Shown here in pieces: positions 8,131 through 60,959 of a stretch of 64,000 bases of DNA. The position numbers and the translations under genes were made by a program. Source of the DNA: Escherichia phage vB_EcoM_LNA2. Each line of letters opens with the position of its first letter. The stretch's first letter is position 1. The stretch is from the sequence record MZ311865.1, one strand, 5' to 3'. The notes under the pieces are model-generated. The model did not search any database and was not told where the DNA came from. It saw only the letters and a program-made list of their open reading frames with translations.

Positions 8131-8160
8131 ATAGTATCACACATCCATGTGTTTGTAAAC
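8131..8160 (-). promoter_or_regulatory. early-type promoter cassette (GTTTAC -35, TACTAT -10, hairpin around -10) inside alt 3' end
   Basis: Minus-strand reading GTTTAC-18nt-TACTAT with inverted repeat GGATG...CATCC flanking the -10, followed by GAGG RBS and ATG. Confidence 0.5.
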
Positions 8161-10247
8161 TATCCTTGGACAAATTTAAACGGAACTGATTCTAAATCCA
8201 TTAAAGATGCTAACAATTTCAAACCTTTAGGTGCACTAGTTTTTTCTACAAATGAGGCAAAAGATACCGGCTCATCTGATTCGATTTCACCAGTCATAGC
8301 AACTACCTCGCCTGTTTCCATGAGAACATCACCATCGTAAATGACAGCTTCGTCCAACTGGTCCGAGGACATGACTTCAGCTTGAATAAATTTAAGGTTG
8401 GATTCTAAACCTGCACCGGTGTCAGATGACGCATCTGTAATTTTATTTATCTGCAAGAGAATGCCTCTAGGCAAAATAATTTCTTGCTCATTAGGGTGAT
8501 TACTCAACTGTCCTGGATAAATCACGTTAACTTTATGGGCACCATCAATAGCCCATCCAACGTTAACACGGATTTGTTCTGGTGCATGCATAGCTGTTCT
8601 TACTTGACTAGGAGAAATAGTAACACCTTCGTCATTATTATCAATGTTAAGCTCTTTGCGAACTTCTTCAGGAGCAAGTCCAAGGGCAACGTTCTCTTTA
8701 AACCCGCCGAAAATAATAGGAGCTAGTGAAGTGGAAACATAGTTTCTGAAGTAGAATACCTTATTTTTAACCATTGCTTCGTAAATAGGCATTCTGATAG
8801 ACTGGGCTCTATACAACGTTAGTCCTTCAGGTAAACGGTCTCCATTTAAAAACGCCGAATCAAGACCATCAATAGCGCGTTTAACTTCATCTTCATCTGC
8901 AACATCATAAAAATCCGGTTTATAACGGCCTAACAACATATTATTGATATCGGTATACGCAGAAGAGGCATATTCGCGAATAGCTCGTTTTTCAGCAACA
9001 GAGTATTGTTTAGGGTCCCGATTCATTGTTATATTAAAGGTGCCTCTAGCCGATTCCCGTGCATAAGTATACATCACATTAGACAAGAACGCTGATTTAC
9101 GTTGTTTCCAAGTTCTTTCAGATACTTCAGCTAAAACGTCGTCGGGCAGTTGGAAATTATCACGTCTAAAATCTTCAAACCATTCGTCTTTAATAGAGTC
9201 TGCAATTTCATTTGCAGCTTCAACAAAAGCAGCTAATGCTTTAACAGATGTTGTTTTTTCAGTTTTAATTTTCTTAGCAAACTTTTCTAAAGTTGGCTTA
9301 ATAACACTACCATAAGAAACTTCATCGGCAAATCTAAAGGATTCATCAATACGATTATAAATCTTATTTTCGATATCAGCAACTAAAGTGCCTTTTGCTG
9401 TGGACGATGCTTGGGCTAGTACGATTTCATATGCTTCAGGAAGTAATTCGGCTGTAGCTGGGCCGCTAACTTCTTTAGCAGAATTTTCGTATTTCTGGAA
9501 TAACTCACCTTCTTGACGGTCAGCTTCTAAAGATTGACTTGCTGCAATAGCACGACGAGAAATTTTAGTACGAGCAATAACAGGCTTATCTTTACGTTTT
9601 TCTTCTACAGCAGCAATAGAACCAGCGATAGCCGTTTCTTTGGTGACCATTTCGCCAGTCTTTTTACTCACATAAACTTCGCCAACATCAGAATCTACTT
9701 TCGTGTACAACTCTGTGTTAATGTTAGGGATGCCTTTAATATCTTCAATGTTAGCATTTTTACGAACCATCATCACATAGGTGTGTTTACCTGTGAATTG
9801 ATACATTGCCGACAATACTTTAAAACGACCACCGGTTTTAGTAGAAACTAAACGAGCAAGAAGAGTTTGAAGTTGTTGTCCGCGTCCTTTCAATTTCTTG
9901 GTAGGGAATCGGAACAGAACTGCATCCATACGAAGAGCTTTAACCTGTTCATATACTGTATTGAAAATGGTGTTGATTGCATCAATAGGAGCAGGACCAA
10001 GGCCATTTTTCAATTCAGCGAGATTACCCTTTTCAGACAGACTCATAATAACAACATGAGCGTATTTGTCGCCAAGTTTAACTTGTTTTACAGCATCGCC
10101 TTCAGAAAGGTAAGAGAATAAGCGAACTACGATGTTTGTATCAACATCACCAATTTTCCAGACTTGTGGAACTTTAGCTTTAGGGTTCAAATTGACGACA
10201 GGAAGACTGCCTTCAGATTCAAACACTTCATTTAATTGTTCAGACAT
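8160..10247 (-). CDS. alt: Alt ADP-ribosyltransferase (head-packaged)
   Basis: 695 aa (T4 Alt 682 aa); position between gene 54 and DNA ligase as in T4. Confidence 0.85.
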   Translation of the reverse strand: MSEQLNEVFESEGSLPVVNLNPKAKVPQVWKIGDVDTNIVVRLFSYLSEGDAVKQVKLGDKYAHVVIMSLSEKGNLAELKNGLGPAPIDAINTIFNTVYEQVKALRMDAVLFRFPTKKLKGRGQQLQTLLARLVSTKTGGRFKVLSAMYQFTGKHTYVMMVRKNANIEDIKGIPNINTELYTKVDSDVGEVYVSKKTGEMVTKETAIAGSIAAVEEKRKDKPVIARTKISRRAIAASQSLEADRQEGELFQKYENSAKEVSGPATAELLPEAYEIVLAQASSTAKGTLVADIENKIYNRIDESFRFADEVSYGSVIKPTLEKFAKKIKTEKTTSVKALAAFVEAANEIADSIKDEWFEDFRRDNFQLPDDVLAEVSERTWKQRKSAFLSNVMYTYARESARGTFNITMNRDPKQYSVAEKRAIREYASSAYTDINNMLLGRYKPDFYDVADEDEVKRAIDGLDSAFLNGDRLPEGLTLYRAQSIRMPIYEAMVKNKVFYFRNYVSTSLAPIIFGGFKENVALGLAPEEVRKELNIDNNDEGVTISPSQVRTAMHAPEQIRVNVGWAIDGAHKVNVIYPGQLSNHPNEQEIILPRGILLQINKITDASSDTGAGLESNLKFIQAEVMSSDQLDEAVIYDGDVLMETGEVVAMTGEIESDEPVSFASFVEKTSAPKGLKLLASLMDLESVPFKFVQG

Positions 10248-10287
10248 AGTGTTTTCCTTTTAGTAATAATTTATATTTATGCCAAAA

Positions 10288-10303
10288 AGAGCCCGAAGGC
10301 TCT
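10288..10303 (-). terminator. UUCG-tetraloop hairpin
   Basis: AGAGCC-cgaa-GGCTCT on plus strand (UUCG loop in minus-strand RNA), just upstream of alt RBS. Confidence 0.5.
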
Positions 10304-10491
10304 TAATCCACAATCGGGAGCAAAGTACGATAAACTTCAAAATTAGGGCCTTTTTCGTACTTATCAAAATTGTCCATAAAAATATTATAGGAATCGTTAT
10401 TAGGAAAATCTAATATAATCTGAGAGCAAGAGGTGGAAACATCTCCACCATCCTTCTTAGCTACAATAACTGTTTCTAAATAAGCTTTCAT
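10303..10491 (-). CDS. hypothetical small protein
   Basis: Track ORF 10303..10512; likely start at internal Met (MKAYLETVIV...) overlapping the ligase stop. Confidence 0.35.
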   Translation of the reverse strand: MKAYLETVIVAKKDGGDVSTSCSQIILDFPNNDSYNIFMDNFDKYEKGPNFEVYRTLLPIVD

Positions 10492-13741: not shown

Positions 13742-13928
13742 GTTTCAACCCTTTAATAGGAGATAACTCTTTACCCATACGTATGTCAGAAGTCCAATCA
13801 ACCCATTGAACAGCATACGCTTCATTGATAATTCCAGCGGCGGTTTTAAATTCAGGGAGAACTTTAAAAATCACCCCAGGAATTCCAACACCTTTTAATT
13901 GGACTGTTTGTGCTATTAAAAATTTCAT
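13731..13928 (-). CDS. hypothetical protein
   Basis: 65-aa ORF immediately downstream of a promoter cassette. Confidence 0.4.
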   Translation of the reverse strand: MKFLIAQTVQLKGVGIPGVIFKVLPEFKTAAGIINEAYAVQWVDWTSDIRMGKELSPIKGLKHVE

Positions 13929-13952
13929 ATTTTTCCACTTACTAAAGAAATC

Positions 13953-13983
13953 ATTATACTCTAATCCGTCCTTGGATGTACAC
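13953..13983 (-). promoter_or_regulatory. early-type promoter cassette (GTGTAC -35, TATAAT -10)
   Basis: Minus-strand GTGTAC-spacer-TATAAT with CCAAGG palindrome in the spacer; -35 overlaps the stop of the 204-aa ORF. Confidence 0.5.
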
Positions 13984-14597
13984 TACTTAATGAAATTAAT
14001 TTCTACCGGATGAACAACAGGTTGAGCAGTGATATATTGAGTAATTGCTTTCATGACTAGAGCTTCAGAACCAGGATTTTTCTCAACGAATTCACGTGCT
14101 AGGTTATGAGCTTCAAGTTCACTTAGTAAACCACTTCGTTGACATCCACGGTCTTGAGTACCCTGTTCAGATAAAAAGGCGACGATGTATTTTTCATCGT
14201 CATACGGTTTAGACGGTTGAGCAAATGTTCCTTTACTTCCAAAAGGAGAGTTATGACGCCACATCACGCCGTTAGGAGTTTCAACCTTCGTATATTCGTG
14301 TGGGCCATTTTTCTTAGTTTCTTGATGTGGAACTTCGTGGACCTTAGGGTTAGGACATTCAATAAAATGCTCATCTAAATCGGTCGAGAATATTAAAGAA
14401 AAACAATTACTAAATTTACCAACACCTGCCTGATAAATTTTACCTTCAGACGTTCTAATTTCACAAACCGAGCCGGCATCAGTAACTTCTAAAACTTCAA
14501 AAGGCTCGATAAGGTCATATGAGAACATGTTTTTAAGGCGTGGAGTAATATCCCCATTTTTAAAATTCATTTTATAAAAAGTATTAACTTTAAACAT
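13983..14597 (-). CDS. hypothetical protein, 204 aa, no recognisable T4 counterpart
   Basis: ORF with GAGGA RBS, preceded by a terminator hairpin and followed by a promoter cassette. Confidence 0.55.
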   Translation of the reverse strand: MFKVNTFYKMNFKNGDITPRLKNMFSYDLIEPFEVLEVTDAGSVCEIRTSEGKIYQAGVGKFSNCFSLIFSTDLDEHFIECPNPKVHEVPHQETKKNGPHEYTKVETPNGVMWRHNSPFGSKGTFAQPSKPYDDEKYIVAFLSEQGTQDRGCQRSGLLSELEAHNLAREFVEKNPGSEALVMKAITQYITAQPVVHPVEINFIK

Positions 14598-14609
14598 AAT
14601 TTCCTCAGT

Positions 14610-14625
14610 GGGAGCCGAAGCTCCC
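14610..14625 (-). terminator. UUCG-tetraloop hairpin
   Basis: GGGAGC-cgaa-GCTCCC on plus strand. Confidence 0.55.
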
Positions 14626-14632: not shown

Positions 14633-14998
14633 TTAGATATCGAATTCATTAAGAACTACATCAAAGATTGCTTCGAGATGTTCAGGTTTAGCTCGATGAC
14701 TCAGGATATGACGAATCCAAGTTTTAACCAGAAGTTTACGATTAACACCGTTCCAGCAAGGATGGGTACCTAAATCACGTTGACGGAAATCGTCATCTAA
14801 AGCGATTTTAAAAGTAGAACCTTCCATCGTGATTGAAACCGTGATGCCATTTTCAAATCGCATATAAACGTAATTAGGAGTCATGCACTGTTCGATTTCA
14901 CAAACTGTACCGTTTTCATGTTTCCATAAGCAAATAACTTCAGAAGAACCAGCGATACCGTTAGAAACATATCTGCGTTCGAAGTTGATGTAGTTCAT
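14633..14998 (-). CDS. hypothetical protein (30.7-like position)
   Basis: 121-aa ORF. Confidence 0.45.
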   Translation of the reverse strand: MNYINFERRYVSNGIAGSSEVICLWKHENGTVCEIEQCMTPNYVYMRFENGITVSITMEGSTFKIALDDDFRQRDLGTHPCWNGVNRKLLVKTWIRHILSHRAKPEHLEAIFDVVLNEFDI

Positions 14999-15039
14999 TT
15001 TATTCTCCAGATGTTTAAGTTGTTTGTTGGTACAGGTCT

Positions 15040-15068
15040 ATAATAACATAACCTGTACCAAAGTAAAC
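15040..15068 (-). promoter_or_regulatory. early-type promoter cassette with 9-10 bp hairpin around -10
   Basis: Minus-strand GTTTAC-17nt-TATTAT; inverted repeat GGTACAGGT...ACCTGTACC flanks the -10. Confidence 0.5.
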
Positions 15069-15072
15069 TGTT

Positions 15073-15441
15073 TTATGCAACTTTAATCCAATTGTCTAAA
15101 TTTAAAACACCTTTGGCTTTCATTTTTTCGATCAGGCTATCTGCTGTAATGCGTCCATTTTGATACCATGTAACATCTTCAGAGTAACCAGTTTCTTCGT
15201 CAACATATGTTTCTGAACGAATTTTACCGGTAATAATAGTTTTTAATTCGTATGTGTCACCTGTGAAAAAGTTTGCTAACACAATTTTCCAAGAGAAATC
15301 ATCTGAAGGACCTTCAGGGGTCATACAACCTACGAACTCAAATTGCTCTTTGTATAACATCCACCGGAATTCTTTAATTTCGATAGCTTTATAACCGCCG
15401 TGGTCTTTACATTTGATGTATGAGTTCAGATTGATTTTCAT
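15073..15441 (-). CDS. hypothetical protein (30.8-like position)
   Basis: 122-aa ORF. Confidence 0.45.
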   Translation of the reverse strand: MKINLNSYIKCKDHGGYKAIEIKEFRWMLYKEQFEFVGCMTPEGPSDDFSWKIVLANFFTGDTYELKTIITGKIRSETYVDEETGYSEDVTWYQNGRITADSLIEKMKAKGVLNLDNWIKVA

Positions 15442-15483
15442 TTTGTTCTCCGGTTTGTTTTATTGATTAGGTGGTACAAGTCT

Positions 15484-15512
15484 ATAGTAACACATCCTAC
15501 AGGAGAGTAAAC
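15484..15512 (-). promoter_or_regulatory. early-type promoter cassette
   Basis: Minus-strand GTTTAC-17nt-TACTAT upstream of ORF 15073..15441. Confidence 0.45.
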
Positions 15513-15550
15513 ATCTTTTTTTAAACTTTTTCTGCCCTAAACGCACAAAA

Positions 15551-15568
15551 GGGAGACCGAAGTCTCCC
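15551..15568 (-). terminator. UUCG-tetraloop hairpin
   Basis: GGGAGAC-cgaa-GTCTCCC on plus strand, immediately 3' of the small basic ORF. Confidence 0.55.
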
Positions 15569-15753: not shown

Positions 15754-16021
15754 TATAAATTCTCTTTAAATGAAAATGCAGGACTTATTGACATTGCCTG
15801 CGCAAGCCCTCAAGGGGAACATAGGTTTTGGGTATTTAACGACAGGATAACCATAAACCCGTCATCATACTTACCATGACTTACACAGCTAACCTTTTGC
15901 TGACGCATGATAGTACAAAATACATTCAAGAGGTACACCGTAAAATTGTCGGGGCGGTACTTCTAAAACATAGCGATTCGCAAATCGATAATCAGACAAT
16001 TCGACGGCTCCTCGATTTAGC

Positions 16022-16270
16022 TTACTTCAGGGTAATAATAAAATGACGTACTGCTTTACGTGCGGCAGAAGCCAGAGGCTTAGCATATTTCAATTCATCT
16101 TTCTGGACCAGGATATCGCGAAGATCGGCTTGTGCTGGATTCAGATGTTTGAAATACTGTAAGATTTCGAGGGCTTCGGCTTCGACATCAATAGATGCAC
16201 CGTAATTTTCGTGGCCATTATTCCATGCATGGCGTTGCAGTTCAAGAGCGTGTTGTAATTGTTTAATCAT
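16022..16270 (-). CDS. rIII: rIII lysis-inhibition accessory protein
   Basis: 82 aa, T4 rIII length, adjacent to gene 31 as in T4. Confidence 0.75.
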   Translation of the reverse strand: MIKQLQHALELQRHAWNNGHENYGASIDVEAEALEILQYFKHLNPAQADLRDILVQKDELKYAKPLASAARKAVRHFIITLK

Positions 16271-17093: not shown

Positions 17094-17664
17094 AAAAGTT
17101 TCGGATTTGTTCCCAATTCAGAGAACGAAGATTATTACGAGAGTACTGAATTACTTCAATACCGGCTTGTTTTAGAATGTCTGCCCAATTTTCAGGAGAT
17201 CGATCGTATAATTCTGCGTATACAACCTTTTTAATACCTGACTGCGTAATAGCTTTAGTGCAATCAGGACATGGAGAAAGCGTCGTATATAACGTAGCGC
17301 CTTCAATAGAATTACCTTTACGAGCTGCAAACAAAATTGCATTCAATTCTGCATGGATTTCATTATTAGCAGACCATGCACTATGAGCGGCCCGATGTTC
17401 TTTAGCCAAAACAAAATTATCTGCCCGTCCAAATGCTGTAGTGCCTTCTTTATGTCCAGCAACGATGACCGGGCTTGGTTTATTCTTCAACCAACCATTT
17501 TCGGATGCATGTTCACAACAGTTAACGCCACCTGCTGGTGAGCCATTATATCCAGTAGAGATAATGCGCCCATCTTTTTCAATGACTGCGCCAACTTTCC
17601 ATGAACAACATTTTGATTCTTGAGAAATCAGATATGCAATCTGAAGGTATGTGCTAGCTTTCAT
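17083..17664 (-). CDS. cd: dCMP deaminase
   Basis: 193 aa; zinc-binding deaminase motifs HAELNAI and SPCPDC; T4 Cd length. Confidence 0.9.
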   Translation of the reverse strand: MKASTYLQIAYLISQESKCCSWKVGAVIEKDGRIISTGYNGSPAGGVNCCEHASENGWLKNKPSPVIVAGHKEGTTAFGRADNFVLAKEHRAAHSAWSANNEIHAELNAILFAARKGNSIEGATLYTTLSPCPDCTKAITQSGIKKVVYAELYDRSPENWADILKQAGIEVIQYSRNNLRSLNWEQIRNFCGE

Positions 17665-18656
17665 TATTGAACCTTATTAATATAAGTTAACAGCTCTTTA
17701 GTTTGTTCCCAACTGATGCACGCATCGGTAACGGAAACGCCATAGGACATATTATCAGAAATTTTTTGATTTCCTTCATGTAGGAATGATTCTATCATAA
17801 TTCCTTTGACCAAATCATTAGCTGCTAAATTTTTACCAATACCAATTTGATTGCTATAATGTCCATCAGCGTTTGCATGGCTACAGTCAACCATTACATA
17901 ATGATTCAGACCTACTGCCCTTGCTTTGTTAGAAGCTTCTTGAATATCAGAAGAATGATAGTTCGGGCCGTTGGTCCCGCCACGCAATACGATATGCGTA
18001 TTCTGATTACCTTCAGCTTCAACAATGCCTACAGTACCATCGACGTCCATACCCATATACCGATGAGGCCAGGCGGCACTATACATCGCGTCTGTAGCTA
18101 CTTTAATAGAACCATTGGTTGCGTTCTTGAAGCCTACGCACATCGGTAGACCTGAAGCAATTTCACGATGTGTCTGACTTTCAGTCGTACGGGCGCCAAT
18201 AGCAACCCATGAGAAAATACCAGAAAGATACTTAATCGTGAATGGGTCTAATACTTCAGTTGCTAATGGAAGTCCCATACGTAGAAGTTTACGACACAAT
18301 GTTCGTGCAACTATAAGACCGTGGTTCATATCAAAACTTCCGTCAAGATATGGATCATTTACAAGACCTTTCCAACCTACGGTAGTTCGAGGCTTTTCAA
18401 AATAAACGCGCATCACTAACAGAACATTAGGAAGACGAGTTTGAAGTTCAGCCAGACGTTTGCCGTATTCAACAGCAGCAATAGGGTCATGAATTGAACA
18501 AGGACCTACAACAATAAGTTTGCGTGGGTCTTCACCATTCATAATCGAATTAACTTGTTCGCGATGAGAAGCCACTTGTGATGCGTAAGCTTCCGACAAA
18601 GGAATAATCTCAGCTAGTTCTTTTGGAGAAATAAGTTTTCCGACGACAGGTAACAT
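17664..18656 (-). CDS. DAHP synthase (phospho-2-dehydro-3-deoxyheptonate aldolase), AroF/AroG-like
   Basis: 330 aa with class I DAHP synthase signatures (VVGPCSIHDP, RVYFEKPRTTVGWKGL, GARTTESQTHRE, VMVDCSHAN, GVSVTDACISWE); locally higher GC than flanks. Confidence 0.85.
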   Translation of the reverse strand: MLPVVGKLISPKELAEIIPLSEAYASQVASHREQVNSIMNGEDPRKLIVVGPCSIHDPIAAVEYGKRLAELQTRLPNVLLVMRVYFEKPRTTVGWKGLVNDPYLDGSFDMNHGLIVARTLCRKLLRMGLPLATEVLDPFTIKYLSGIFSWVAIGARTTESQTHREIASGLPMCVGFKNATNGSIKVATDAMYSAAWPHRYMGMDVDGTVGIVEAEGNQNTHIVLRGGTNGPNYHSSDIQEASNKARAVGLNHYVMVDCSHANADGHYSNQIGIGKNLAANDLVKGIMIESFLHEGNQKISDNMSYGVSVTDACISWEQTKELLTYINKVQ

Positions 18657-18776: not shown

Positions 18777-19013
18777 TTATAGTGTTCCATATACTCGAGT
18801 TGCTTCAACAAGACCATCGCTGCCTAATTTAAGATTAGTAATTTGGTCACCATCTTTAGGATTAACGATTATGAGAAAAGAACGTGGAGATTCTTGAATA
18901 ACTCGTAATGTTGCATCTTGGAAACGTTCAGACACTTTATTGATGAGTGCTTGAGCAAATTCTTTTACTTTAATCTGAAATTCGTGTACTGTAATTGGGT
19001 TTTCACTTAGCAT
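18777..19013 (-). CDS. hypothetical protein
   Basis: 78-aa ORF downstream of a promoter cassette. Confidence 0.4.
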   Translation of the reverse strand: MLSENPITVHEFQIKVKEFAQALINKVSERFQDATLRVIQESPRSFLIIVNPKDGDQITNLKLGSDGLVEATRVYGTL

Positions 19014-19040
19014 TTCTATTTCCTCATTTGTTGGTAGAGT

Positions 19041-19070
19041 TATAGTATCACAACTCCACCATGTTGTAAA
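19041..19070 (-). promoter_or_regulatory. early-type promoter cassette with hairpin around -10
   Basis: Minus-strand GTTTAC-18nt-TACTAT; inverted repeat GGTGGAGTT...AACTCTACC flanks the -10. Confidence 0.5.
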
Positions 19071-19073
19071 CCA

Positions 19074-19349
19074 TTAAATTGCTTTGCATTCAATTTTTTG
19101 TGTACCGAAATTGATATCACATTGGATAACTAAATCGCCGTCAAGATCAAATACCACTATGACGTGTGCAGACCCAGGGAGAAGAGTAATAGCAATAGAA
19201 TCTACTTGGTCTGGGAGCAAAGCATTGAGTACATGAGTTAGTTGAGCATGAACTCTGAGTTCGGCTGCATTATCAAGCACTTCAAACATATTATTAGCAA
19301 TAATCTGACTGAAGACTACCTTTACAATTTCAGAATAAGTTGGGAACAT
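19074..19349 (-). CDS. hypothetical protein
   Basis: 91-aa ORF. Confidence 0.4.
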   Translation of the reverse strand: MFPTYSEIVKVVFSQIIANNMFEVLDNAAELRVHAQLTHVLNALLPDQVDSIAITLLPGSAHVIVVFDLDGDLVIQCDINFGTQKIECKAI

Positions 19350-20840: not shown

Positions 20841-21139
20841 TATTTTATTCCTAAGAAAATTTCAAGAATACGAATGTTATGCTCGCGCCGGTCTTTATTA
20901 ATTTCAGCAACGTTTTTATTAATTGACGTACTTCTAACGTTTGAAGAAATAAATTTAATCATATGACTTTTGAGTTGTTGCAAATCCAACCCTTTTTCTT
21001 TAGCAGCTTTACGAAGAGCTTTACCTGCTTCATCTAGTGCCTTTGCTGCATCTTTGTCATAATTGCCAAGTGACATTCCACGACAGATATCAATATACTC
21101 ATCAGACCGTTTGATGTAATTCTCTAGTAATGTTTTCAT
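20840..21139 (-). CDS. hypothetical protein
   Basis: 99-aa ORF. Confidence 0.4.
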
Positions 21140-46800: not shown

Positions 46801-46809
46801 TGGTAAAAT

Positions 46810-49326: not shown

Positions 49327-49370
49327 GCTAATTTCCTCAATTGATTAATGTTTTTGTAATCCATGAGAGC

Positions 49371-49400
49371 ATTATACTCTGCTCTCAAGAGTTTGTACAA
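49371..49400 (-). promoter_or_regulatory. early-type promoter cassette for ndd with hairpin around -10
   Basis: Minus-strand TTGTAC-18nt-TATAAT; stem GAGAGC/GCTCTC encloses the -10. Confidence 0.5.
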
Positions 49401-49402
49401 TT

Positions 49403-49603
49403 TTATTCGGCTATATCAGAACGTTCAAAAAGCTCTTCAACAGTTAAACATTCAGTGTCATCTTCAATAAAGAATCGAGTCCAACACGTTGGGGCGATAC
49501 AGTTATGAGTTTGTCCGGCTATAGAAGCTACACGAATAAGCTGCTGGCCATTGTTCAGGACAAATTTTTCACCAATTTCAACATCTTTAAAAAGCTTAGC
49601 CAT
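49403..49603 (-). CDS. hypothetical protein
   Basis: 66-aa ORF. Confidence 0.4.
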   Translation of the reverse strand: MAKLFKDVEIGEKFVLNNGQQLIRVASIAGQTHNCIAPTCWTRFFIEDDTECLTVEELFERSDIAE

Positions 49604-49631
49604 TTTGTGTTCCTCATGTTTCAGTAGGACT

Positions 49632-49661
49632 ACTATACCATAATCCTACCTTGTTGTAAAC
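49632..49661 (-). promoter_or_regulatory. early-type promoter cassette
   Basis: Minus-strand GTTTAC-18nt-TATAGT with GTAGGA/TCCTAC stem. Confidence 0.5.
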
Positions 49662-49853
49662 AATTAAATTACATTAAAATATGTTAAAGCCAACCATGTT
49701 CCAGTGAACGAACATGCAATGTAAAAACCCGTATCACAAATTGTTCTTAGTACAATAAGAAGTGCAATTTTCATAAGTACCTCAACACAATTGAAAATAT
49801 TATACAAATCATTGGGATACTAAGCAACCATATTCCTATCCACATTTTAGAGC

Positions 49854-50117
49854 TCATATCTCAACTTCCGCGAGTTCCATATATCCTTTGTTGATAACCT
49901 CTTTAAGGTCTTTAGAAAGAATAACACTAAAATGGTCGTTCATATGTCCATTAACTAAACGAGTTATTTCTGCTTCAGATGACATATAAGGCACGTCTGA
50001 GTCCCAATGAGATAGACCCAAATGGGTATAAATCATCCCTTCGTCATCTGCAGTGTTGTACATTGAAACAAATTCGCCTGTTACTTTATGTTTTGCGTAG
50101 AAAAATTTAAATTTCAT
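49854..50117 (-). CDS. hypothetical protein
   Basis: 87-aa ORF. Confidence 0.4.
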   Translation of the reverse strand: MKFKFFYAKHKVTGEFVSMYNTADDEGMIYTHLGLSHWDSDVPYMSSEAEITRLVNGHMNDHFSVILSKDLKEVINKGYMELAEVEI

Positions 50118-50143
50118 GATGTTATCCTCTTTTAGATAGGACT

Positions 50144-50173
50144 ACTATATCATAGTCCTACTTAGTTGTAAAC
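50144..50173 (-). promoter_or_regulatory. early-type promoter cassette with hairpin around -10
   Basis: Minus-strand GTTTAC-18nt-TATAGT; stem TAGGACT/AGTCCTA encloses the -10. Confidence 0.5.
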
Positions 50174-50185
50174 ACTTTTATGAAA

Positions 50186-50806
50186 TTAAAGATGAAGATA
50201 CCACCCGTTGTAGTTGCTCTTGCGGACGATTTTCTTTAGGTCTTCATGGTCTCCCACGAACTTTATAGAATAAGAGAAGACGTCAGGTGAGGTTTCTTTG
50301 ACATCTAATATAATAATGCAATCTGCGACTCGATGGTTCAAGAAGGGCCCTATATTGATTCCATTACCACCCGGATAATCACCACTGTATCCTGTGGTAA
50401 CTGAAATCCATTTAGAATCTATCTGGTGTGTCTTGACTTCTACACGAATTCCACAATACTTGGGATGGGCTAACACGTCCCACGCATACGTGTACGGGTC
50501 TTCTACGTCTTCAATACCTTTATTAACATATCCGTCTAGCCAATTTGCTACCACATACTCTGCAAAGACCGCAACCTTACAACGTCGAACTACATCTTCT
50601 TTGTTTTGGTCAGGATTTTGGCTCAGGGAATACCGAGCAGTGTCAGCAATCTTCACCTTCATTTCACTAGTCAAAAACTCATTCGACAGGATAAATGTCG
50701 GAAGATTCTTCAGTCTCAACAGTCCCAAGTTCGTCTTTACCATAGATACCTCTGATGTGTAGTTCGCCAAAATAAATGCGGTCACCTTCTTCAAGATATT
50801 CAGCAT
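50186..50806 (-). CDS. hypothetical protein at the T4 denB position (start uncertain)
   Basis: 206-aa track ORF; internal Met (MVKTNLG) would give 185 aa, the T4 DenB length, but identity is not verified. Confidence 0.4.
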   Translation of the reverse strand: MLNILKKVTAFILANYTSEVSMVKTNLGLLRLKNLPTFILSNEFLTSEMKVKIADTARYSLSQNPDQNKEDVVRRCKVAVFAEYVVANWLDGYVNKGIEDVEDPYTYAWDVLAHPKYCGIRVEVKTHQIDSKWISVTTGYSGDYPGGNGINIGPFLNHRVADCIIILDVKETSPDVFSYSIKFVGDHEDLKKIVRKSNYNGWYLHL

Positions 50807-50986: not shown

Positions 50987-51002
50987 GGGGACCGAAGTCC
51001 CC
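50987..51002 (-). terminator. UUCG-tetraloop hairpin after rIIB
   Basis: GGGGAC-cgaa-GTCCCC on plus strand. Confidence 0.55.
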
Positions 51003-55628: not shown

Positions 55629-57444
55629 AGGACATCCATTCTTTACGAAGTTCTGAATCATCACCCATCAACATTTCAAAGAGTTCTTTCCAATTTTCAG
55701 GAAGTTTAACTACGTCGTACACAGGGTTCTGAATCATTTCACGATATTCTGACTTTTCAAGGGAGCCTAATCCCTTGATGTATCGAATACTGTGCTTAGG
55801 CAGTGTATCTTTAACTTCTTCGTACTCAGCCACAGTATAAAACCATTTTTGAGTTTTGCCAATTTGTGCAATAATTACAGGCGTTTTAACAAAGCGAATA
55901 CGTCCTTGTTCAAACAATTCAGGCCAATTACTAAAGAAAGCAAGCAAAGCCGGATAGATACTTCCAAGACCGTCATGATCGGCATCGGTCATAATTGCAA
56001 TATTACGATAGTTCGTATTCTCTGCCTTTTCACCAAGAATAAGACCCGTGATAGCACAGATATCAAAGAGCTCTTTGTTCTTCATCATATCAGCATATGA
56101 CATACCCCAGCTATTCATCACCTTACCACGTAATGGGAATCCACCGTGTAGTTCACGGTCACGAACATCAATGAGATAACCAATTGCCGAATCACCTTCT
56201 GTTAAGAACAATGTCGTATCTGCATCTTTACCGCATTGGTTAGCTTTAATATGCTTATGAACCTTAGCTTTAGTTGCCTTTTTAGCTGCTTTAGTTTCTG
56301 CAGCCTTTTCTGCTGCCAATTTACGAGCTAATGCTGCTTCAACAATAGGCATAATCAAGGCTTCGTTTTTAAGAAGTGCCTGAGCAATTTTCTTAGCATC
56401 TAATTGGATATGATTACGAATATCACCATACGTTGACGTTAAACGTTCTTTAGTCTGAGAATCAAAACGCATGTTGCTCATGTCTCTAATAAACATCAAC
56501 ATTGTGAGACATTCTTTAACACGAGCTTTAGTGACTTCAATACCCTTATATTTCTTTTTAATACCAGGCAAAAGATGTTCGCAGATATCATCCATTACAC
56601 ATTCAACATGATGACCACCATTTTTAGTATGGATGTTATTCACGTAAGTTAAATGACGGAAGCCATCTGGTGATGTTGTGAATGCCATAGAGACTCTATC
56701 GTTTTCTTGAATGATGTTATCTTCGCCAAATTGTTTAGCAAATCGTTTAAAATTACCATCAACCTTTTTACCATTAAATGTGAACTTGATATCAGGATAA
56801 ACGACTGCCAATGTTTGAAGTCGGTCTAAAGTAATATCTAAATAAATTTGAGATAAATTATGCTCTTCAAATGAAGAGAAATCAGGAGTGAAGATTACTT
56901 TAGTGCCTTTACCTTTAGATTTCTTAGAAGACCATGATTTGTTTTCCATTCCGTTTGAACAGTTAACAGTGATTTCATTTTCGCCATCTGACGTGATGCC
57001 TGTAAACAACGTAGAGAAGATATTAGTTAAACTACTCCCGACGCCGTTCATACCACCAGTCTTGCGTTCAGAGTCATCACCAAAGTTACCACCAGCCTTT
57101 GGAATAGTCCAGGCTGCTACAGGCCCAGGAATTTGTTCACCTGTTTGGTCGGTAACTAAACCTTGAGGAATACCACGTCCGTTATCTTCCACTGAGACTT
57201 GATTATTTTTAATTTGCACATCGATTTTATTTGCAAACTTAAATGATGTACGAATAGCTTCATCAACCGAGTTGTCAATAATCTCATCGATTAATTTAAC
57301 CAGACCAGGAACATATTCAACTTGTTGATATTTGCCAAACAAAAAACGCTCATGTGCTTCTTTAGCAGAAGAACCAATATACATACCACTACGTTTCTTA
57401 ATATGTTCTACATCTGACAATACCTTAATTTCATTTTTAATCAT
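55627..57444 (-). CDS. 39: DNA topoisomerase II large subunit gp39 (unsplit 39+60 form)
   Basis: 605-aa single ORF with GHKL ATPase/Toprim-type features; no separate gene 60 and no inserted homing endonuclease. Confidence 0.9.
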   Translation of the reverse strand: MIKNEIKVLSDVEHIKKRSGMYIGSSAKEAHERFLFGKYQQVEYVPGLVKLIDEIIDNSVDEAIRTSFKFANKIDVQIKNNQVSVEDNGRGIPQGLVTDQTGEQIPGPVAAWTIPKAGGNFGDDSERKTGGMNGVGSSLTNIFSTLFTGITSDGENEITVNCSNGMENKSWSSKKSKGKGTKVIFTPDFSSFEEHNLSQIYLDITLDRLQTLAVVYPDIKFTFNGKKVDGNFKRFAKQFGEDNIIQENDRVSMAFTTSPDGFRHLTYVNNIHTKNGGHHVECVMDDICEHLLPGIKKKYKGIEVTKARVKECLTMLMFIRDMSNMRFDSQTKERLTSTYGDIRNHIQLDAKKIAQALLKNEALIMPIVEAALARKLAAEKAAETKAAKKATKAKVHKHIKANQCGKDADTTLFLTEGDSAIGYLIDVRDRELHGGFPLRGKVMNSWGMSYADMMKNKELFDICAITGLILGEKAENTNYRNIAIMTDADHDGLGSIYPALLAFFSNWPELFEQGRIRFVKTPVIIAQIGKTQKWFYTVAEYEEVKDTLPKHSIRYIKGLGSLEKSEYREMIQNPVYDVVKLPENWKELFEMLMGDDSELRKEWMS

Positions 57445-57495
57445 GTTGTCTCCTCGTTATGAAGGTATTCTATCATCCGAAATCTAAAGCAAAAA

Positions 57496-57507
57496 GGGCC
57501 GAAGCCC
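57496..57507 (-). terminator. short UUCG-tetraloop hairpin upstream of gene 39
   Basis: GGGC-cgaa-GCCC on plus strand. Confidence 0.4.
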
Positions 57508-57951
57508 TTATTTAAATTTAATTTTCTGAAGTGCATCAATTGCAGCTAAACGCCCTTGTTCACTTTTAACTGTAATGACCACATCGCCTGATACGATCAC
57601 CGAACCATCAACAAATTCTATAGAGCCTTTTTTGAAATCGACAGCTGTATCTGGTTCCGGAACTTCTTCAAAGAATTTAAATTCTGCACCATAAATCAGA
57701 ATATCACCTTGCATACTAATGATTGTACGTCTAGGTCCATCGGTTTCAGCGGCAATCATTGAAACACCATAACCAATCATCTCTTCTACAATAAAATCTC
57801 TTGATAATAAAACTGTATGCAGAGTAGTGTTAAGACGTTTACCAGTTGTATTAAGAATTCTCAAGAAATTATCTTCTTGACCTTTGATAATACGATATTT
57901 CTTACCAACTTCAAAACCTTTAAAACCTTTAAAAGCCGTATTAAAAGCCAT
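57508..57951 (-). CDS. hypothetical protein
   Basis: 147-aa ORF, TAATTATG junction with the upstream zinc-ribbon ORF. Confidence 0.45.
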   Translation of the reverse strand: MAFNTAFKGFKGFEVGKKYRIIKGQEDNFLRILNTTGKRLNTTLHTVLLSRDFIVEEMIGYGVSMIAAETDGPRRTIISMQGDILIYGAEFKFFEEVPEPDTAVDFKKGSIEFVDGSVIVSGDVVITVKSEQGRLAAIDALQKIKFK

Positions 57952-58564: not shown

Positions 58565-58773
58565 TAAGTTGTACCATTTTCAGTGATTTCACGGAAGATA
58601 CCATAGATAGGCATTTCGTCACCGAGTTTTTCGTAAACGTAAACCACTTCAGTGTAGCATAAAAATTCAGTCCAGTTTTTCTGTACAACAACTAAATCAG
58701 GATTAAACAGAACATCTTCAAACTCATCGATGTTTGAATCAGTAGTTACGTTTTTAATGATTTGACGTTTCAT
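58546..58773 (-). CDS. hypothetical protein
   Basis: Track ORF 58546..58818 trimmed to internal ATG at 58771-58773 preceded by GAGGAG (75 aa). Confidence 0.4.
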
Positions 58774-58801
58774 AATATTCTCCTCTTGTTTTGATAGGTC
58801 T

Positions 58802-58830
58802 ATAGTATCATAGACCATAGTTGTTGTACA
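58802..58830 (-). promoter_or_regulatory. early-type promoter cassette with hairpin around -10
   Basis: Minus-strand TGTACA-17nt-TACTAT; palindrome GGTCTAT..ATAGACC around the -10. Confidence 0.45.
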
Positions 58831-59355
58831 TCATTTTAGCAAAATAAAATCAACTTGTTCTGCCAATGAACGTCTGAACATTAATTGACAACTTCCGAGG
58901 ATGAAATCAGGTGCTTCATAGACCGCGATGTAGTATCCTTTAGCTTTCAAGAGTTCAACATCCACCTGGTCATCAAACCATGCATAAACCGCGTCAACAC
59001 TTTCAAATCCAAAATAGAACTCTTGAGCCCAATCTTCGCTCAATTCAAATGTGTGCTCAATTCTATAGTATCTTAAGATATTTTGTTCAAGGAGTTTGTC
59101 TTCATTTACTGTAGGACGATTAGGGACATTATAGTTGTCGCCATGATGGTAGAAGTTACCTGAGAGTATTCCATGCTTATCAAGGAACTCCCATGTTTCT
59201 TCAGAGTTGTCGGTGCCCGACCAACCGTATGGCGAACGAGGTTCTTTATTCCAAGAGGTTTCCCAAATTCTGACGGCTTTACCGTCTTCAATAGCAATTC
59301 CTGGTAATGATTCACGTTGAGTACAAAAACTACGTTCTACGCGGTAAACTAACAT
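58831..59355 (-). CDS. hypothetical protein
   Basis: 174-aa ORF; RBS GAGGAGAA. Confidence 0.45.
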   Translation of the reverse strand: MLVYRVERSFCTQRESLPGIAIEDGKAVRIWETSWNKEPRSPYGWSGTDNSEETWEFLDKHGILSGNFYHHGDNYNVPNRPTVNEDKLLEQNILRYYRIEHTFELSEDWAQEFYFGFESVDAVYAWFDDQVDVELLKAKGYYIAVYEAPDFILGSCQLMFRRSLAEQVDFILLK

Positions 59356-59381
59356 ATTATTCTCCTCTGGTTGATATGGTT

Positions 59382-59410
59382 ATAATATCAAAACCAGAGG
59401 AGAAGTAAAC
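59382..59410 (-). promoter_or_regulatory. early-type promoter cassette with 13-bp hairpin enclosing -10 and pairing with the downstream RBS
   Basis: Minus-strand GTTTAC-17nt-TATTAT; inverted repeat TTCTCCTCTGGTT (59360-59372) / AACCAGAGGAGAA (59391-59403). Confidence 0.5.
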
Positions 59411-59414
59411 AACT

Positions 59415-59834
59415 TTATGCAAAAGATGCTGGACAATATTTTTTGATTTGGAACTCAGGAACTACCATGAACTGTCCAGCAAAAACAATGTTATAAAGCT
59501 TGACTCCATCTTCAACCCATTGGTCACTGATGAACCCAGCGACTTGATTCGTTGTCCACGGTGTTCCATCTGTCGCAGAGGCAATGGTGAACTTGTGGTC
59601 TTTTACAACTAAAACCGATCTGCACAGTTTCCATTTGAACGCTTTTTCTTCCGGTTCAATGAATTGGCTTTTAACGTAACCAATGTTACCATCGGCGTCA
59701 CGAACTTTAACTTCGTTACGTCCAAAAACAGGATCACTCACATAAAGAACTTCAACCAACTTCCCGGCAACTTTAGAGCGAGAAGCATCCGATACGTGTA
59801 CATAATCACCAATAGAGAGATTTGCAATATTCAT
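59415..59834 (-). CDS. hypothetical protein, paralog family member 1
   Basis: 139 aa; C-terminal GFISDQWVEDGVKLYNIVFAGQF block shared with the two upstream ORFs. Confidence 0.5.
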   Translation of the reverse strand: MNIANLSIGDYVHVSDASRSKVAGKLVEVLYVSDPVFGRNEVKVRDADGNIGYVKSQFIEPEEKAFKWKLCRSVLVVKDHKFTIASATDGTPWTTNQVAGFISDQWVEDGVKLYNIVFAGQFMVVPEFQIKKYCPASFA

Positions 59835-59843: not shown

Positions 59844-60341
59844 TTAAGCTTTACGAGGAGACACATAGCGAGTGATTTCAGATTCTTCAACAACTCGGAA
59901 GTCACCTAAGAATACAATATTGTATAGCTTTTTACCATCTTCAACCCATTGGTCGCTGATGAAGCCGCACATAGTATCAGTTTTGCTTGGATAACCGTAT
60001 TCGTCGATGTAATCAAATTCTTTATCGGTTATAAATTCAACGCCTTTGCAAAGGGCCCATTTGAACTGTGTAGTAGGCTCAACGATATCGCTTGAAGCAA
60101 AGTGTGCAGGTGCAACTTCTTCGCTTGAAGCAAATTGGACTCGTATATGTTTTTCCAGGAATTTAGGACTTACGTAAGCATACTGGGCATCTTGTCCGCC
60201 AAAACTGGGGATGATTCGAACTTTAACTTCTTTAACACGTCCCATGCCGTTAGTACGAAGCCCTGCTACTTCAACCAGACGACCTGCAGCTTTAGAACGA
60301 GAAGCAGGAGATACACGAAGGATTTCACCAATAGTAATCAT
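59844..60341 (-). CDS. hypothetical protein, paralog family member 2
   Basis: Track ORF 59844..60404 trimmed to internal ATG at 60339-60341 (MITIGEILRV..., 165 aa); C-terminal GFISDQWVEDGKKLYNIVFLGDF. Confidence 0.5.
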   Translation of the reverse strand: MITIGEILRVSPASRSKAAGRLVEVAGLRTNGMGRVKEVKVRIIPSFGGQDAQYAYVSPKFLEKHIRVQFASSEEVAPAHFASSDIVEPTTQFKWALCKGVEFITDKEFDYIDEYGYPSKTDTMCGFISDQWVEDGKKLYNIVFLGDFRVVEESEITRYVSPRKA

Positions 60342-60371
60342 ATTTTTTCTCTCTTTGTTTAAGTTGAATTC

Positions 60372-60402
60372 ATTATACTCCATCCATCCTTGGATGTAAA
60401 AC
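60372..60402 (-). promoter_or_regulatory. early-type promoter cassette
   Basis: Minus-strand GTTTTAC-18nt-TATAAT with CATCC..GGATG stem in the spacer. Confidence 0.45.
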
Positions 60403-60403
60403 A

Positions 60404-60898
60404 TTAATTAAGAATATTAACTACTGCACTACGTGGAACAACACTAAAATCACCAGCATGAACAACGTTAATAAGTTCAACACCATCTTCAATCCACTGG
60501 TCAGTTACCCATCCACTCACTGGACCTGCGAACGGACGTCGAATTGAAACGGCTTTACACAACAAATCAGTAGGCTCAATAGGCTTAATCAGAGTACCGT
60601 ACATACAAGCGATGTCCATATCAAAGTGGAGACCATCTTTAACAGGTGCTTCTTCAATCAAGAGTTCAAAGTCGGTGCTCGGAAGGGCAGTAGTAGAAAT
60701 TGTACCGTATGAATTTTTAATTTCTAAGAATAACCAAGGGCCTTCAACTTGTTTGATGAAGTTAACAATAGTGAAACTATTACCTTGAGTGGCACCTAAA
60801 ATTTCACAAAACTTTTCATAAGCTCGCACTGAAGCACCGTACCAATTGATTTGTTTTTCGTCTTTCAGGATGTAAGTAGCCGTAGTATTGATATTCAT
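60404..60898 (-). CDS. hypothetical protein, paralog family member 3
   Basis: 164 aa; C-terminal GWVTDQWIEDGVELINVVHAGDF, divergent copy of the same domain. Confidence 0.5.
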   Translation of the reverse strand: MNINTTATYILKDEKQINWYGASVRAYEKFCEILGATQGNSFTIVNFIKQVEGPWLFLEIKNSYGTISTTALPSTDFELLIEEAPVKDGLHFDMDIACMYGTLIKPIEPTDLLCKAVSIRRPFAGPVSGWVTDQWIEDGVELINVVHAGDFSVVPRSAVVNILN

Positions 60899-60929
60899 AA
60901 TGTTTTTCCTGTTTGGTTAAGATAGAAAG

Positions 60930-60959
60930 ATTATACTCCAACCATCCTTGGTTGTAAAC
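60930..60959 (-). promoter_or_regulatory. early-type promoter cassette
   Basis: Minus-strand GTTTAC-18nt-TATAAT with CCAAGG-centred stem in the spacer. Confidence 0.5.

Follow-up and report, generated by a model that had tools for sequence, protein, structure and literature searches.

The 64,000-nucleotide stretch of Escherichia phage vB_EcoM_LNA2 analysed here (sequence record MZ311865.1; hereafter the window, whose positions are used throughout) carries 21 early-promoter cassettes on its minus strand and none on its plus strand. We consider it likely that these are immediate-early promoter cassettes of the promoter-early stem-loop (PeSL) class, in which a hairpin acts in read-through RNA and the repeated sequence provides crossover points for recombination. 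PeSL-type cassettes are an already described kind of element and no new kind is revealed; what the analysis adds is a set of clean recombinant junctions, together with quantitative support for a read-through-specific RNA role of the hairpin. Between 13000 and 23000 the window is 97-98% identical to Escherichia phages PNJ-6, SSE1, HX01 and JS09, RB69-like T4-type phages of the genus Mosigvirus, and its minus strand is the early/middle strand.

The original prediction had placed about 20 cassettes on the minus strand. All 20 proved real by matrix scan, by reading of each site and by repeat finding, every coordinate (20/20) marking the last base of the minus-strand -10 hexamer to within 1 nt; one cassette, 33811 upstream of rnh, had been missed. 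A position weight matrix trained on the clear sites (threshold 25) recovered 20 distinct minus-strand sites and no plus-strand site, and addition of the TTGTAC site at 49400 brought the total to 21. An unbiased repeat finder run over 7700-61100 returned the cassettes as the largest dispersed direct-repeat families (D1, D2, D6, D8, D9, D12, D13 and D17). A generic TTGACA/TATAAT scanner detected no overall enrichment (50 matches, 55 expected), its top minus-strand matches being the cassettes. A loose consensus scan (GTTTAC with at most one mismatch, N16-19, TAnnnT) was barely enriched (53 versus 34±6) and was set aside for the matrix.

Each cassette spans about 80-100 nt and is named here by the coordinate of its minus-strand -35. 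The parts follow in the order A-rich upstream tract, GTTTAC-type -35, spacer, usually TGn, TAnnAT -10, Shine-Dalgarno sequence (SD) and ATG. This architecture was found at every site as predicted, with more variants than had been described: TTTTAC and ATGTAC join GTTTAC, GTGTAC and TTGTAC at the -35, TATTAT, TAGTAT and TACAAT join TATAAT, TACTAT and TATAGT at the -10, and the spacer measures 17 nt at 6 sites, 18 at 14 and 19 at 1. An extended -10 (TGn) is present at 16/21 sites. The 20 nt preceding the -35 are 77% A+T against a background of 62% (A, 45% versus 32%); the SD begins 13-32 nt, and the ATG lies 24-44 nt, downstream of the -10. At 14/20 sites the stop codon of the preceding gene overlaps the -35 or sits 2-8 nt ahead of it, which bears out the overlap foreseen for several cassettes. 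The consensus reads aaAaAata-GTTTAC-aa ... TG.-TAttAT-ag.cctATcaaaaa, with aaAaAataGTTTACaa as its upstream part, and paralogous cassette pairs reach 78% identity outside the hexamers. In 8/21 leaders, which are A-rich, the SD contains GGAG, the target motif of the T4 RegB endoribonuclease (e.g. 47093, 46771, 15512, 15068, 30054, 59410, 58831 and 22603); the remaining cassettes use GAGGAA as SD, without this motif.

In the homologous 50 kb of T4, 12 sites match, all of them on the minus strand, and T4 positional orthologues were found for nine window cassettes. The T4 record annotates the cd.2/cd.3 early promoter as Pe133295, whose coordinate lies exactly 7 nt past the -10 of T4 site 133331; the predicted +1 is therefore the A of CCT-A-TCAA. 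Judged by their consensus and these orthologues, we infer that the window cassettes would be the immediate-early promoters of an RB69/HX01-like phage.

The frequency of hairpins against chance had been set beforehand as a test of the prediction, and it lay above shuffled, consensus-keeping and random-genomic nulls alike. A consensus-keeping null was needed because parts of the stems consist of conserved promoter positions; bases were permuted among sites within each alignment column, which keeps the consensus and destroys within-site complementarity. Over a 40-nt segment the 21 window sites had a mean minimum free energy (MFE) of -8.72 kcal/mol, compared with -4.22±0.45 under column permutation (the lowest mean in 300 permutations being -5.41), -3.08±0.43 for flank shuffles and -4.39±0.60 for random genomic 40-mers, a set-level excess of about 10 standard deviations. 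Perfect Watson-Crick stems of at least 6 bp were found at 11/21 sites, with about 2 expected. T4 displayed the same excess (-7.07 versus -4.13±0.60). To these were added 120 IMG/VR stretches (about 1 Mb of diverse T4-like contigs, from a scan seeded with the class-A pattern), in which scanning for promoter, SD and ATG gave 204 sites that were reduced to 77 representatives at <80% core identity. These 77 cassettes had an MFE of -8.36 versus -4.10±0.20, and 38% versus 8% of them reached -8 kcal/mol or lower. A fixed pairing register (t-k with t+1+k) held for several window hairpins and for 11/105 IMG/VR class-A cores. As the register of the hairpin shifts, folding was done without a fixed register and judged against nulls that preserve the consensus. 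No curated Rfam covariance model matched anywhere in the window at gathering score.

Hairpins are common in the cassettes but not present in all of them. About two-thirds of the cassettes carry one stable hairpin, which lies within the spacer or surrounds the -10 or else, at four sites, directly precedes the -35; the predicted 6-13-bp inverted repeat is present at about 14/21 sites and absent from the remainder. At nine sites the hairpin encloses or overlaps the -10, with per-site z values from dinucleotide-shuffle folding of -2.5 to -6.1. The most negative z belongs to 30054 (29989-30074; GTGTAC, spacer 18, TATAGT), where GATAGGGTTA/TAGCCCTATC surrounds the -10 of the frd.1 promoter (z -6.1). 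Cassette 59410 (59353-59430; GTTTAC, spacer 17, TATTAT), which drives MotB.2, has a long stem in which the spacer pairs with the SD (CCTCTGGTT/AACCAGAGG, extendable to 13 bp; z -5.2). Around the -10 of 19071 (19011-19091; GTTTAC, spacer 18, TACTAT), which drives the cd.2 homologue and whose T4 counterpart is the annotated promoter Pe133295, lies GGTGGAGTT/AACTCTACC with one G·U (z -4.8), and around that of 15068 (14996-15088; GTTTAC, spacer 17, TATTAT), which drives 30.7, the 11-bp TTGGTACAGGT/ACCTGTACCAA (z -4.6). The ndd cassette 49400 (49324-49420; TTGTAC, spacer 18, TATAAT) has TGAGAGCA/TGCTCTCA (z -4.5) and the ndd.1 cassette 49661 (49601-49681; GTTTAC, spacer 18, TATAGT) has GTAGGATTA/TAGTCCTAC with one G·U (z -3.3), both around the -10. 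In 58831 (58771-58851; ATGTAC, spacer 18, TACTAT), which drives cef, GGTCTAT/ATAGACC overlaps the -10 (z -3.6). The -10 is again surrounded in 50173 (50115-50193; GTTTAC, spacer 18, TATAGT), by TAGGACTA/TAGTCCTA ahead of an 87-aa open reading frame (ORF) without T4 match (z -3.2), and in 21197 (21137-21217; GTTTAC, spacer 18, TATAAT), by AGGAGCA/TGCTCCT ahead of a 99-aa ORF (z -2.5).

Four further cassettes have 5-7-bp spacer hairpins with a conserved AAGGA loop (z -1.3 to -1.6), whose arms covary between copies (AACCA/TGGTT, ATCCA/TGGAT, ACACCA/TGGTGT, CCACAA/TTGTGG). These are 60959 (60896-60979; GTTTAC, spacer 18, TATAAT; AACCA/TGGTT), which drives a MotB.1-like ORF of 164 aa; 60401 (60339-60421; TTTTAC, spacer 18, TATAAT; ATCCA/TGGAT), which drives motB; 23787 (23728-23807; GTTTAC, spacer 18, TACAAT; ACCACAA/TTGTGGT), which drives rnlA; and 22603 (22541-22623; GTTTAC, spacer 18, TACTAT; AACACCA/TGGTGTT), which drives alc. 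A similar short and weak spacer hairpin, ATCC/GGAT, outside the per-site z scoring, is found in 13983 (13926-14003; GTGTAC, spacer 19, TATAAT), which drives the 30.5 homologue. Per-site folding detected no significant embedded hairpin in 47093, 46771, 44275, 33811, 30504, 15512 and 8160. Four of these are described below with their upstream hairpins. The others are 44275 (44209-44295; GTTTAC, spacer 18, TACTAT), with no significant hairpin, which drives asiA; 33811 (33747-33831; GTTTAC, spacer 18, TACTAT), with no hairpin, which drives rnh and has its T4 orthologue at 150763; and 8160 (8099-8180; spacer 18, TACTAT), whose GTTTAC overlaps the alt stop codon, which drives the alt.-3 homologue and whose alternative short repeats ACACAT/ATGTGT and TGGATG/CATCCA are not individually significant.

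The hairpins persist between relatives while their sequences change. A strong -10-enclosing hairpin is present in T4 and in the window alike at the 30.7, cd.3/cd.2 and frd.1 promoters. Among Mosigvirus relatives stem substitutions are mostly structure-preserving: in SHSML-52-1 a G-C→G·U change in 30054 occurs together with U·G→C-G (-16.3 to -16.0 kcal/mol), and a double change in 15068 turns U·G into A-U (-17.9 to -18.2 kcal/mol); the 49661 stem is one pair longer in DCP548 and FL31, with a G·U besides in FL31; and 59410 in AV114 has C-G→U·G. Across genera, the arms of the frd.1 promoter read GATAGGGTT/AGCCCTATC, GATAGGGCT/AGTCCTATC, CAGGGTA/TACCCTG, TAAGGCTAT/ATAGCCTTA and AGGGCTAT/ATAGCCCT, and those of the ndd promoter GAGAGC/GCTCTC or CGAGAATC/GGTTCTCG. 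At both promoters the hairpin around the -10 is kept while arm sequence, arm position and loop length change. A fixed-register covariation test fails, because all three of these vary. Such persistence with changing arms looks like the signature of selection for a generic stable hairpin rather than for a specific RNA motif or protein-binding site.

These data bear on the simplest alternative, that the cassettes are ordinary T4-type early promoters whose inverted repeats are functionless by-products of the consensus, of cassette duplication or of quasi-palindrome correction. Stems do arise partly from consensus positions (e.g. extended -10 TTATG pairing with TATAG), many cassettes are paralogues, about one-third of the sites have no hairpin, and T4 is a classic system for quasi-palindrome-templated mutation. 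However, the column-permutation null, which keeps the consensus, reaches only half the observed folding energy, the excess holds over random genomic segments as well, and arms that differ wholly between paralogues and orthologues have nevertheless kept their pairing. Nor does this explanation predict the upstream-terminator complementarity and the sense-strand bias described below, and we regard it as unlikely.

The window was aligned to ten Mosigvirus relatives and each junction was read. Four ORF-scale differences had both breakpoints inside cassettes and left a hybrid cassette, in line with the role in gene gain and loss that had been proposed for the family. First, 46781-47016, holding the 71-aa ORF between 47093 and 46771, is missing in AV114, mar005P1, FL31 and DCP548; these two cassettes share an 85-nt direct repeat running from GTTTAC to ATGTCTAAA. 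Second, 60401-60890 (MotB.1) is missing in AV114, where cassettes 60959 and 60401 have recombined within the shared GGAGTATAAT. Third, AV114 also lacks 15069-15436 (30.8), with the crossover at the GGAGAA SD of cassettes 15512 and 15068. Fourth, phiC120 has an extra 83-aa ORF inserted in cassette 30504, bounded on one side by the shared -35 and on the other by a duplicated ATCAACAA..GAGGAAATCAAAATG half-cassette. By rough hand tallies rather than scripted counts, 3/7 single-ORF events strike the approximately 8% of ORFs that are cassette-bracketed (binomial p≈0.014).

Exchange between cassettes of one genome is also visible. Seven of nine cassettes are closer to a same-genome paralogue than to their T4 positional orthologue; 22603 is closest to 30054, and 8160 to 30504, rather than to their T4 counterparts. 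Within T4, the alc and alt.-3 early promoters (AF158101.6, 136336 and 123093) are 98% identical over variable positions. The cassettes undergo concerted evolution within each genome. As dispersed direct repeats, in places 260-600 bp apart, they are suited to serve as crossover points. The deletion products of cassette exchange are visible in relatives, and the hybrid junctions and concerted evolution, as read from the aligned genomes, show directly that gene loss has occurred by recombination at cassettes. About 76 Mosigvirus records, and Dhakavirus as well, contain the 71-aa ORF. No relocation of it or of the 204-aa ORF (13983-14597, minus strand; phrog_17531) to new loci in other phages was found, the Dhakavirus context of the 71-aa ORF not having been examined, and the variation in the 71-aa ORF is most simply read as loss through homologous exchange rather than as the arrival of a mobile unit.

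The cassettes do not, as had been claimed, bracket exactly the genes that lack T4 counterparts. While they lie in variable early regions, 18/21 in the window drive genes that have T4 homologues (identified by tblastn or, for asiA, from position and annotation), including motA, asiA, motB, ndd, alc, rnlA, rnh, cef, frd.1, frd.2, 30.5, 30.7 and 30.8, which agrees with the 45/57 of Nolan 2006 (PMC1524935). The paralogue trio said to have no T4 counterparts is the MotB family, two members of which have them. Among the genes singled out only the 204-aa ORF truly has no T4 match. It stands at the T4 30.6 position in about 113 Mosigvirus records and elsewhere has only partial matches, in Shigella phage SP18 ('gp30.6A') and Citrobacter phage CkP1; its replacement junctions lie at microhomology of the ribosome-binding site (RBS) and ATG, not in cassettes.

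Evidence on how the hairpin might act came from its apparent interchangeability with upstream terminators. In four cassettes without an embedded hairpin a strong one lies directly upstream of the -35, and in three of the four it is a UUCG-tetraloop stem of -12 to -19 kcal/mol followed by a T-run. Cassette 47093 (47023-47135; GTTTAC, spacer 17, TATTAT), which drives the variable 71-aa ORF and is a direct repeat with 46771, has the UUCG-loop terminator AGGGAGCTTCGGCTCCCT at 47118-47135. Its recombination partner 46771 (46703-46800; GTTTAC, spacer 17, TATTAT), which drives motA, has GGGCTTTT..AGAGCCC at about 46780-46800. The UUCG terminator GGGAGACTTCGGTCTCCC lies upstream of both 30504 (30444-30552; GTTTAC, spacer 17, TAGTAT; drives frd.2), at about 30535-30552, and 15512 (15439-15568; GTTTAC, spacer 17, TACTAT; drives 30.8), at about 15551-15568. 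A strong embedded hairpin was found in 0/4 cassettes with an upstream hairpin compared with 12-13/17 of the others (one-sided Fisher p ~0.01-0.02), and in the IMG/VR set the embedded MFE was -5.5 with a strong upstream hairpin versus -9.4 without (Mann-Whitney p=0.007; Fisher p=0.016). Within the window, upstream and embedded MFE showed no significant correlation (Spearman rho -0.14), since the upstream 60-mers are for the most part coding noise; the information lies in the categorical contrast alone.

UUCG-loop stems recur in this part of the genome, at 47118-47135, ~30535-30552, ~15551-15568 and ~14603-14625. Two UUCG/CGAA-tetraloop hairpins with T-runs on both sides, 50987-51002 and 57494-57509, were called as terminators on both strands; lying downstream of rIIB and gene 39, they appear to be bidirectional. 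The suggestion that the embedded hairpins themselves terminate antisense, plus-strand (late-direction) transcription, with a T-run supplied by the complement of the UP tract, is barely credible. Two embedded hairpins (50137-50160 and 58797-58816) did appear 'terminator-like' on the plus strand, which is only 2 of about 14; the T-rich UP complement starts at least 9 nt beyond the stem, too far for an intrinsic terminator, and the G·U bias favours the minus (sense) strand.

Three lines of evidence point to sense-strand RNA. The 3′ ends of the helices are concentrated at -2 to +3 relative to the predicted start site; the 5′ arm thus precedes the RNA that the cassette itself initiates, and the hairpin could fold only in read-through RNA. 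The difference between sense and antisense MFE was -1.36 in the window (null +0.14±0.42), -1.52 in T4 (+0.18±0.49) and +1.43 in RB49 (+3.00±0.52), in each case about 3 standard deviations below the composition null. Moreover, internal G·T outnumbered A·C oppositions 17:7 in the 77 IMG/VR cassettes (null G·T fraction 0.38, p=0.0013). An earlier count on 34 helices (16:14) was ambiguous, because A·C oppositions in RB49 are forced by ACA(-35)/TAT(-10); the count was redone on the 77 de-replicated cassettes with a null. This constitutes moderate evidence that the hairpin acts on read-through sense-strand RNA.

The same data argue against the inverted repeats acting as DNA, that is, as a cruciform or structure-specific target for a phage protein over the -10 and spacer, whether in early-promoter shut-off or in targeted recombination, e.g. 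by endonuclease VII on extruded cruciforms. An inverted repeat across the -10 and spacer is classic operator geometry, and crossovers do fall inside cassettes; early-promoter shut-off is 'not completely understood' (Uzan review), and Arbiol 2010 (PMC2839356) speculated on a protein recognising the stem-loop. Several points tell against such a target, which we judge improbable. The arms have no motif in common, which makes a sequence-specific operator unlikely. The sense strand folds better than the antisense strand, and G·T oppositions are preferred to A·C. An RNA terminator located upstream, outside the promoter, can take the place of the hairpin. Loops of 8-14 nt are unfavourable for cruciform extrusion. 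Crossovers fall at the -10, the RBS and the first codons alike, as plain homology predicts.

In the model that we prefer, host sigma70 RNA polymerase would fire the cassettes straight after infection, starting about 7 nt downstream of the -10, with the A-rich UP-like tract, A-rich leader and GAGG/GGAG SD completing each promoter unit. In RNA reading through from upstream, the hairpin would most likely be an attenuator, a pausing element and/or a 3′-end barrier rather than a classical terminator, and would insulate tandem early transcription units from each other. Phage homologous recombination would use the cassettes as crossovers, so that an ORF between two of them may be deleted, inserted or swapped, and the exchange would homogenise cassette sequences within the genome. 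Attenuation of upstream transcription finds indirect support in the upstream-terminator complementarity and the sense-strand bias. The only experimental support comes by analogy from RB49, where a PeSL stem-loop cut lacZ in a read-through reporter as strongly as rrnB T1 (Arbiol 2010, PMC2839356).

Since the hairpin ends exactly at the cassette's own start site and has no U-tract, it may instead be a 'transcript-origin mark' rather than a terminator, present only on RNAs arriving from upstream and directing them to a specific fate, a notion that we regard as doubtful. Such fates could be processing that recreates the primary 5′ end, protection from 3′-exonucleases once RegB or RNase E has cleaved at the following SD, or recognition by a phage factor. 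A structure-specific nuclease on the same hairpins could also make cassette exchange active and targeted, not passive homology. If true, the mark would be a general promoter-embedded way for T4-type phages to uncouple tandem early genes.

A switch in translation or processing, in which the hairpins mask or expose the RBS in read-through RNA or direct RNase E/RegB cleavage, is suggested by one cassette. The 59410 stem CUCCUCUGGUU/AACCAGAGGAG (59353-59407, minus strand) joins the promoter spacer to the GAGGAG SD of MotB.2 (-15.9 kcal/mol, z -5.2), so the RBS is predicted to be masked in the read-through transcript and free in 59410's own. The RegB motif GGAG occurs in 8/21 leaders, and the T4 genes e, soc and 49 have a promoter-inside-hairpin geometry, the gene being translated mainly from its own promoter's transcript. 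In the other ~13 hairpins, however, the 3′ arm stops 10-25 nt short of the SD. With the SD untouched in these, the switch could be general only through processing effects, and as a general explanation we think it very unlikely.

Several observations weigh against the PeSL reading with its read-through hairpin and crossover role. Embedded hairpins have no U-run and none was called as a minus-strand intrinsic terminator in the terminator scan, whereas canonical UUCG-loop terminators within the same stretch were called (e.g. 51002 and 57509); at the upstream hairpins of 47093, 30504 and 15512 a T-run is seen by eye, and the scanner made no minus-strand call there. With no U-tract following the stem, the embedded hairpins are not canonical intrinsic terminators, and 'effective terminator' cannot be read from the sequence. 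The G·U asymmetry falls partly at promoter-consensus positions and so leaves room for selection at the DNA level. The short spacer hairpins are individually below significance, and six or seven cassettes have no significant hairpin, two or three of which (44275, 33811, 13983) lack an upstream hairpin as well, so that a cassette can evidently do without one. For this phage both promoter activity and hairpin function are ones that we infer.

The recombination data carry their own counterweight. Four other ORF-scale events do not involve cassettes: three occurred at RBS/ATG microhomology and one is the variable stretch 15870-16022. At such microhomology the 204-aa ORF was swapped in AV114 and phiC120 for a 95-aa ORF, with loss of cassette 13983; the 95-aa ORF resembles T4 30.6 in position and length. 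The other two concern an 82-aa ORF at 29492-29740 and the nrdA middle-promoter region, which was replaced by an ORF. The variable stretch (minus strand) is intergenic, between rIII and a 30.9-like ORF, and includes, at 15938, a site weakly resembling a promoter (GTGTAC-17-TACTAT). AV114 and SHSML-52-1 lack the stretch, and in phiC120 a 153-bp GC-richer insert interrupts it. A tRNA-like nature of the phiC120 insert near 15938 was considered and dropped, as ARAGORN finds no tRNA. Homing-endonuclease and intron insertions are unrelated to cassettes. Indel numbers are small, and the cassettes are one recombination route among several.

The analysis extends PeSL-type cassettes to the RB69/HX01 group, that is to Mosigvirus, a large genus in wide use in phage therapy and polymerase research, and supplies sequence-level examples in which recombination of the flanking cassettes removed a small early gene (MotB.1, 30.8 or the ORF that precedes motA). 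Terminator interchangeability, sense bias, the end at the start site and generic conservation would, if confirmed experimentally, sharpen the published terminator hypothesis into a testable RNA model. The catalogue of cassettes should also help annotation, as most deposited Mosigvirus records leave all of these promoters unannotated.

The genes of the window run as follows, with annotation taken over from HX01 and mar005P1 and the order established by comparison with T4: baseplate genes, alt, 30, 30.x, rIII, 31, cd, pseT, alc, rnlA and denA; nrdAB, td, frd, 32, 59, 33 and rnh, followed by the plus-strand tail-fibre genes 34-38 and t; and lastly asiA, arn, motA, 52, ndd, denB, rIIB, rIIA, 39, cef, motB, dexA and dda. 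A DAHP synthase (phospho-2-dehydro-3-deoxyheptonate aldolase) gene at 17664-18656 (minus strand) adjoins cd at the T4 position of cd.1, a host-like metabolic gene typical of the RB69/HX01-like group. Gene 34 (proximal long tail fibre) contains, at 35131-36128 on the plus strand, tandemly dispersed 44-48-nt repeats that correspond to a repeated peptide motif. Upstream of nrdA, at 27713-27797 (minus strand), a MotA-box middle promoter (AATGCTTCA, about 12 nt, TATAAT) is followed by the hairpin AACGGGATAAATACTATCCCGTT; G53 and SHSML-52-1 have a 101-aa ORF in place of this stretch. Relatives (AV114, AV111, SHSML-52-1 and HX01) carry homing endonuclease genes or introns at window points 24726, 26365, 27690, 28366, 32240 and 57444-57459, in or beside nrdB, nrdA, td, 59/33 and gene 39; the window is without all of them.

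The cassettes can be compared with three known systems. They share with T4 and RB69 early promoters (Miller 2003; Nolan 2006, PMC1524935; Hinton 2010, PMC2988021) the GTTTAC -35, TGn, TAnnAT -10, an A-rich UP tract near -42 and C-rich positions -3 to -1. For T4 early promoters, Hinton 2010 (PMC2988021) sets out this composition of -35, TGn, -10 and UP element. Nolan 2006 (PMC1524935) predicted, by the same kind of approach as here, 57 RB69 early promoters, 45/57 of them ahead of T4 orthologues, and treated the sites as promoters only, with no mention of a stem-loop, hairpin, inverted repeat or palindrome. Our literature search found no paper linking PeSLs with RB69 and nothing usable on transcription-start mapping in T4-type phages. 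In T4 e, soc, 49 and I-TevI the two arms likewise flank an internal promoter, with the 5′ arm before it and the 3′ arm after it, and only long transcripts fold. To our knowledge, these T4 cases involve late or middle promoters and the RBS is always masked; in the window the SD is masked in 1/21 cassettes (59410), at an early promoter.

The closest likeness is to the PeSL cassettes described for RB49/phi1 (Arbiol, Comeau, Kutateladze, Adamia & Krisch 2010, PMC2839356) and also in T4/PST and KVP40/nt-1 (Comeau, Arbiol & Krisch 2014, PMC4122927). T4/PST PeSLs have the same promoter consensus, TTTACW-N17-TAYWAT, and are likewise tied to gene-content differences between close relatives (PMC4122927). 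Their stem-loops are described just upstream of the promoter, whereas many in the window are embedded and 4/21 are of the upstream type; our folding scan detects embedded hairpins at some T4 promoters as well (frd.1, cd.3 and 30.7). With RB49/phi1 PeSLs the window cassettes share the order of parts (stop codon in an AT-rich tract, promoter, stem-loop mostly in the spacer or at the -10, CATCAAAAC-like start, GGAGAA-type SD and ATG), the dispersed early-strand repeats and indels that distinguish close relatives and have their crossovers within cassettes. The hairpins are similar in energy (-10 to -15 kcal/mol in RB49, -7 to -18 in the window). They differ in the -35 (GTTTAC, of T4/RB69 type, versus TTGACA), in the stems (mixed-sequence, e.g. 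TAGGAC, GGTACAGG and GAGAGC, versus G4/C4 tracts) and in the cargo (mostly conserved T4 early genes versus ORFans); moreover, RB49/phi1 PeSLs have been studied by terminator, promoter and mini-circle assays, whereas the window cassettes are known from sequence alone.

On the features by which Arbiol 2010 (PMC2839356) define a PeSL in sequence, the identity that was predicted appears to hold throughout. A sigma70-type promoter points toward the downstream ORF (21/21), behind an AT-rich tract with a stop codon and ahead of an SD and start codon at the 3′ end; the repeats are conserved over about 60-100 bp and dispersed on the early strand, and indel crossovers fall inside cassettes. RB49 PeSLs put through the same folding pipeline look alike (TTGACAggggatc..gatccccTATACT, ggggatatagCATAATatcccc, then CATCAAAAC..GGAGAAT..ATG). 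A stem-loop in one of the five allowed positions is found in most window cassettes, 44275 and 33811 having none and 13983 and 8160 weak repeats only. These positions define five PeSL subclasses, with the stem-loop in the spacer, over the -35, over the -10, in the upstream AT-rich tract or downstream of the -10 (PMC2839356), and one hairpin per cassette at a variable position, as seen in the window, corresponds to that description.

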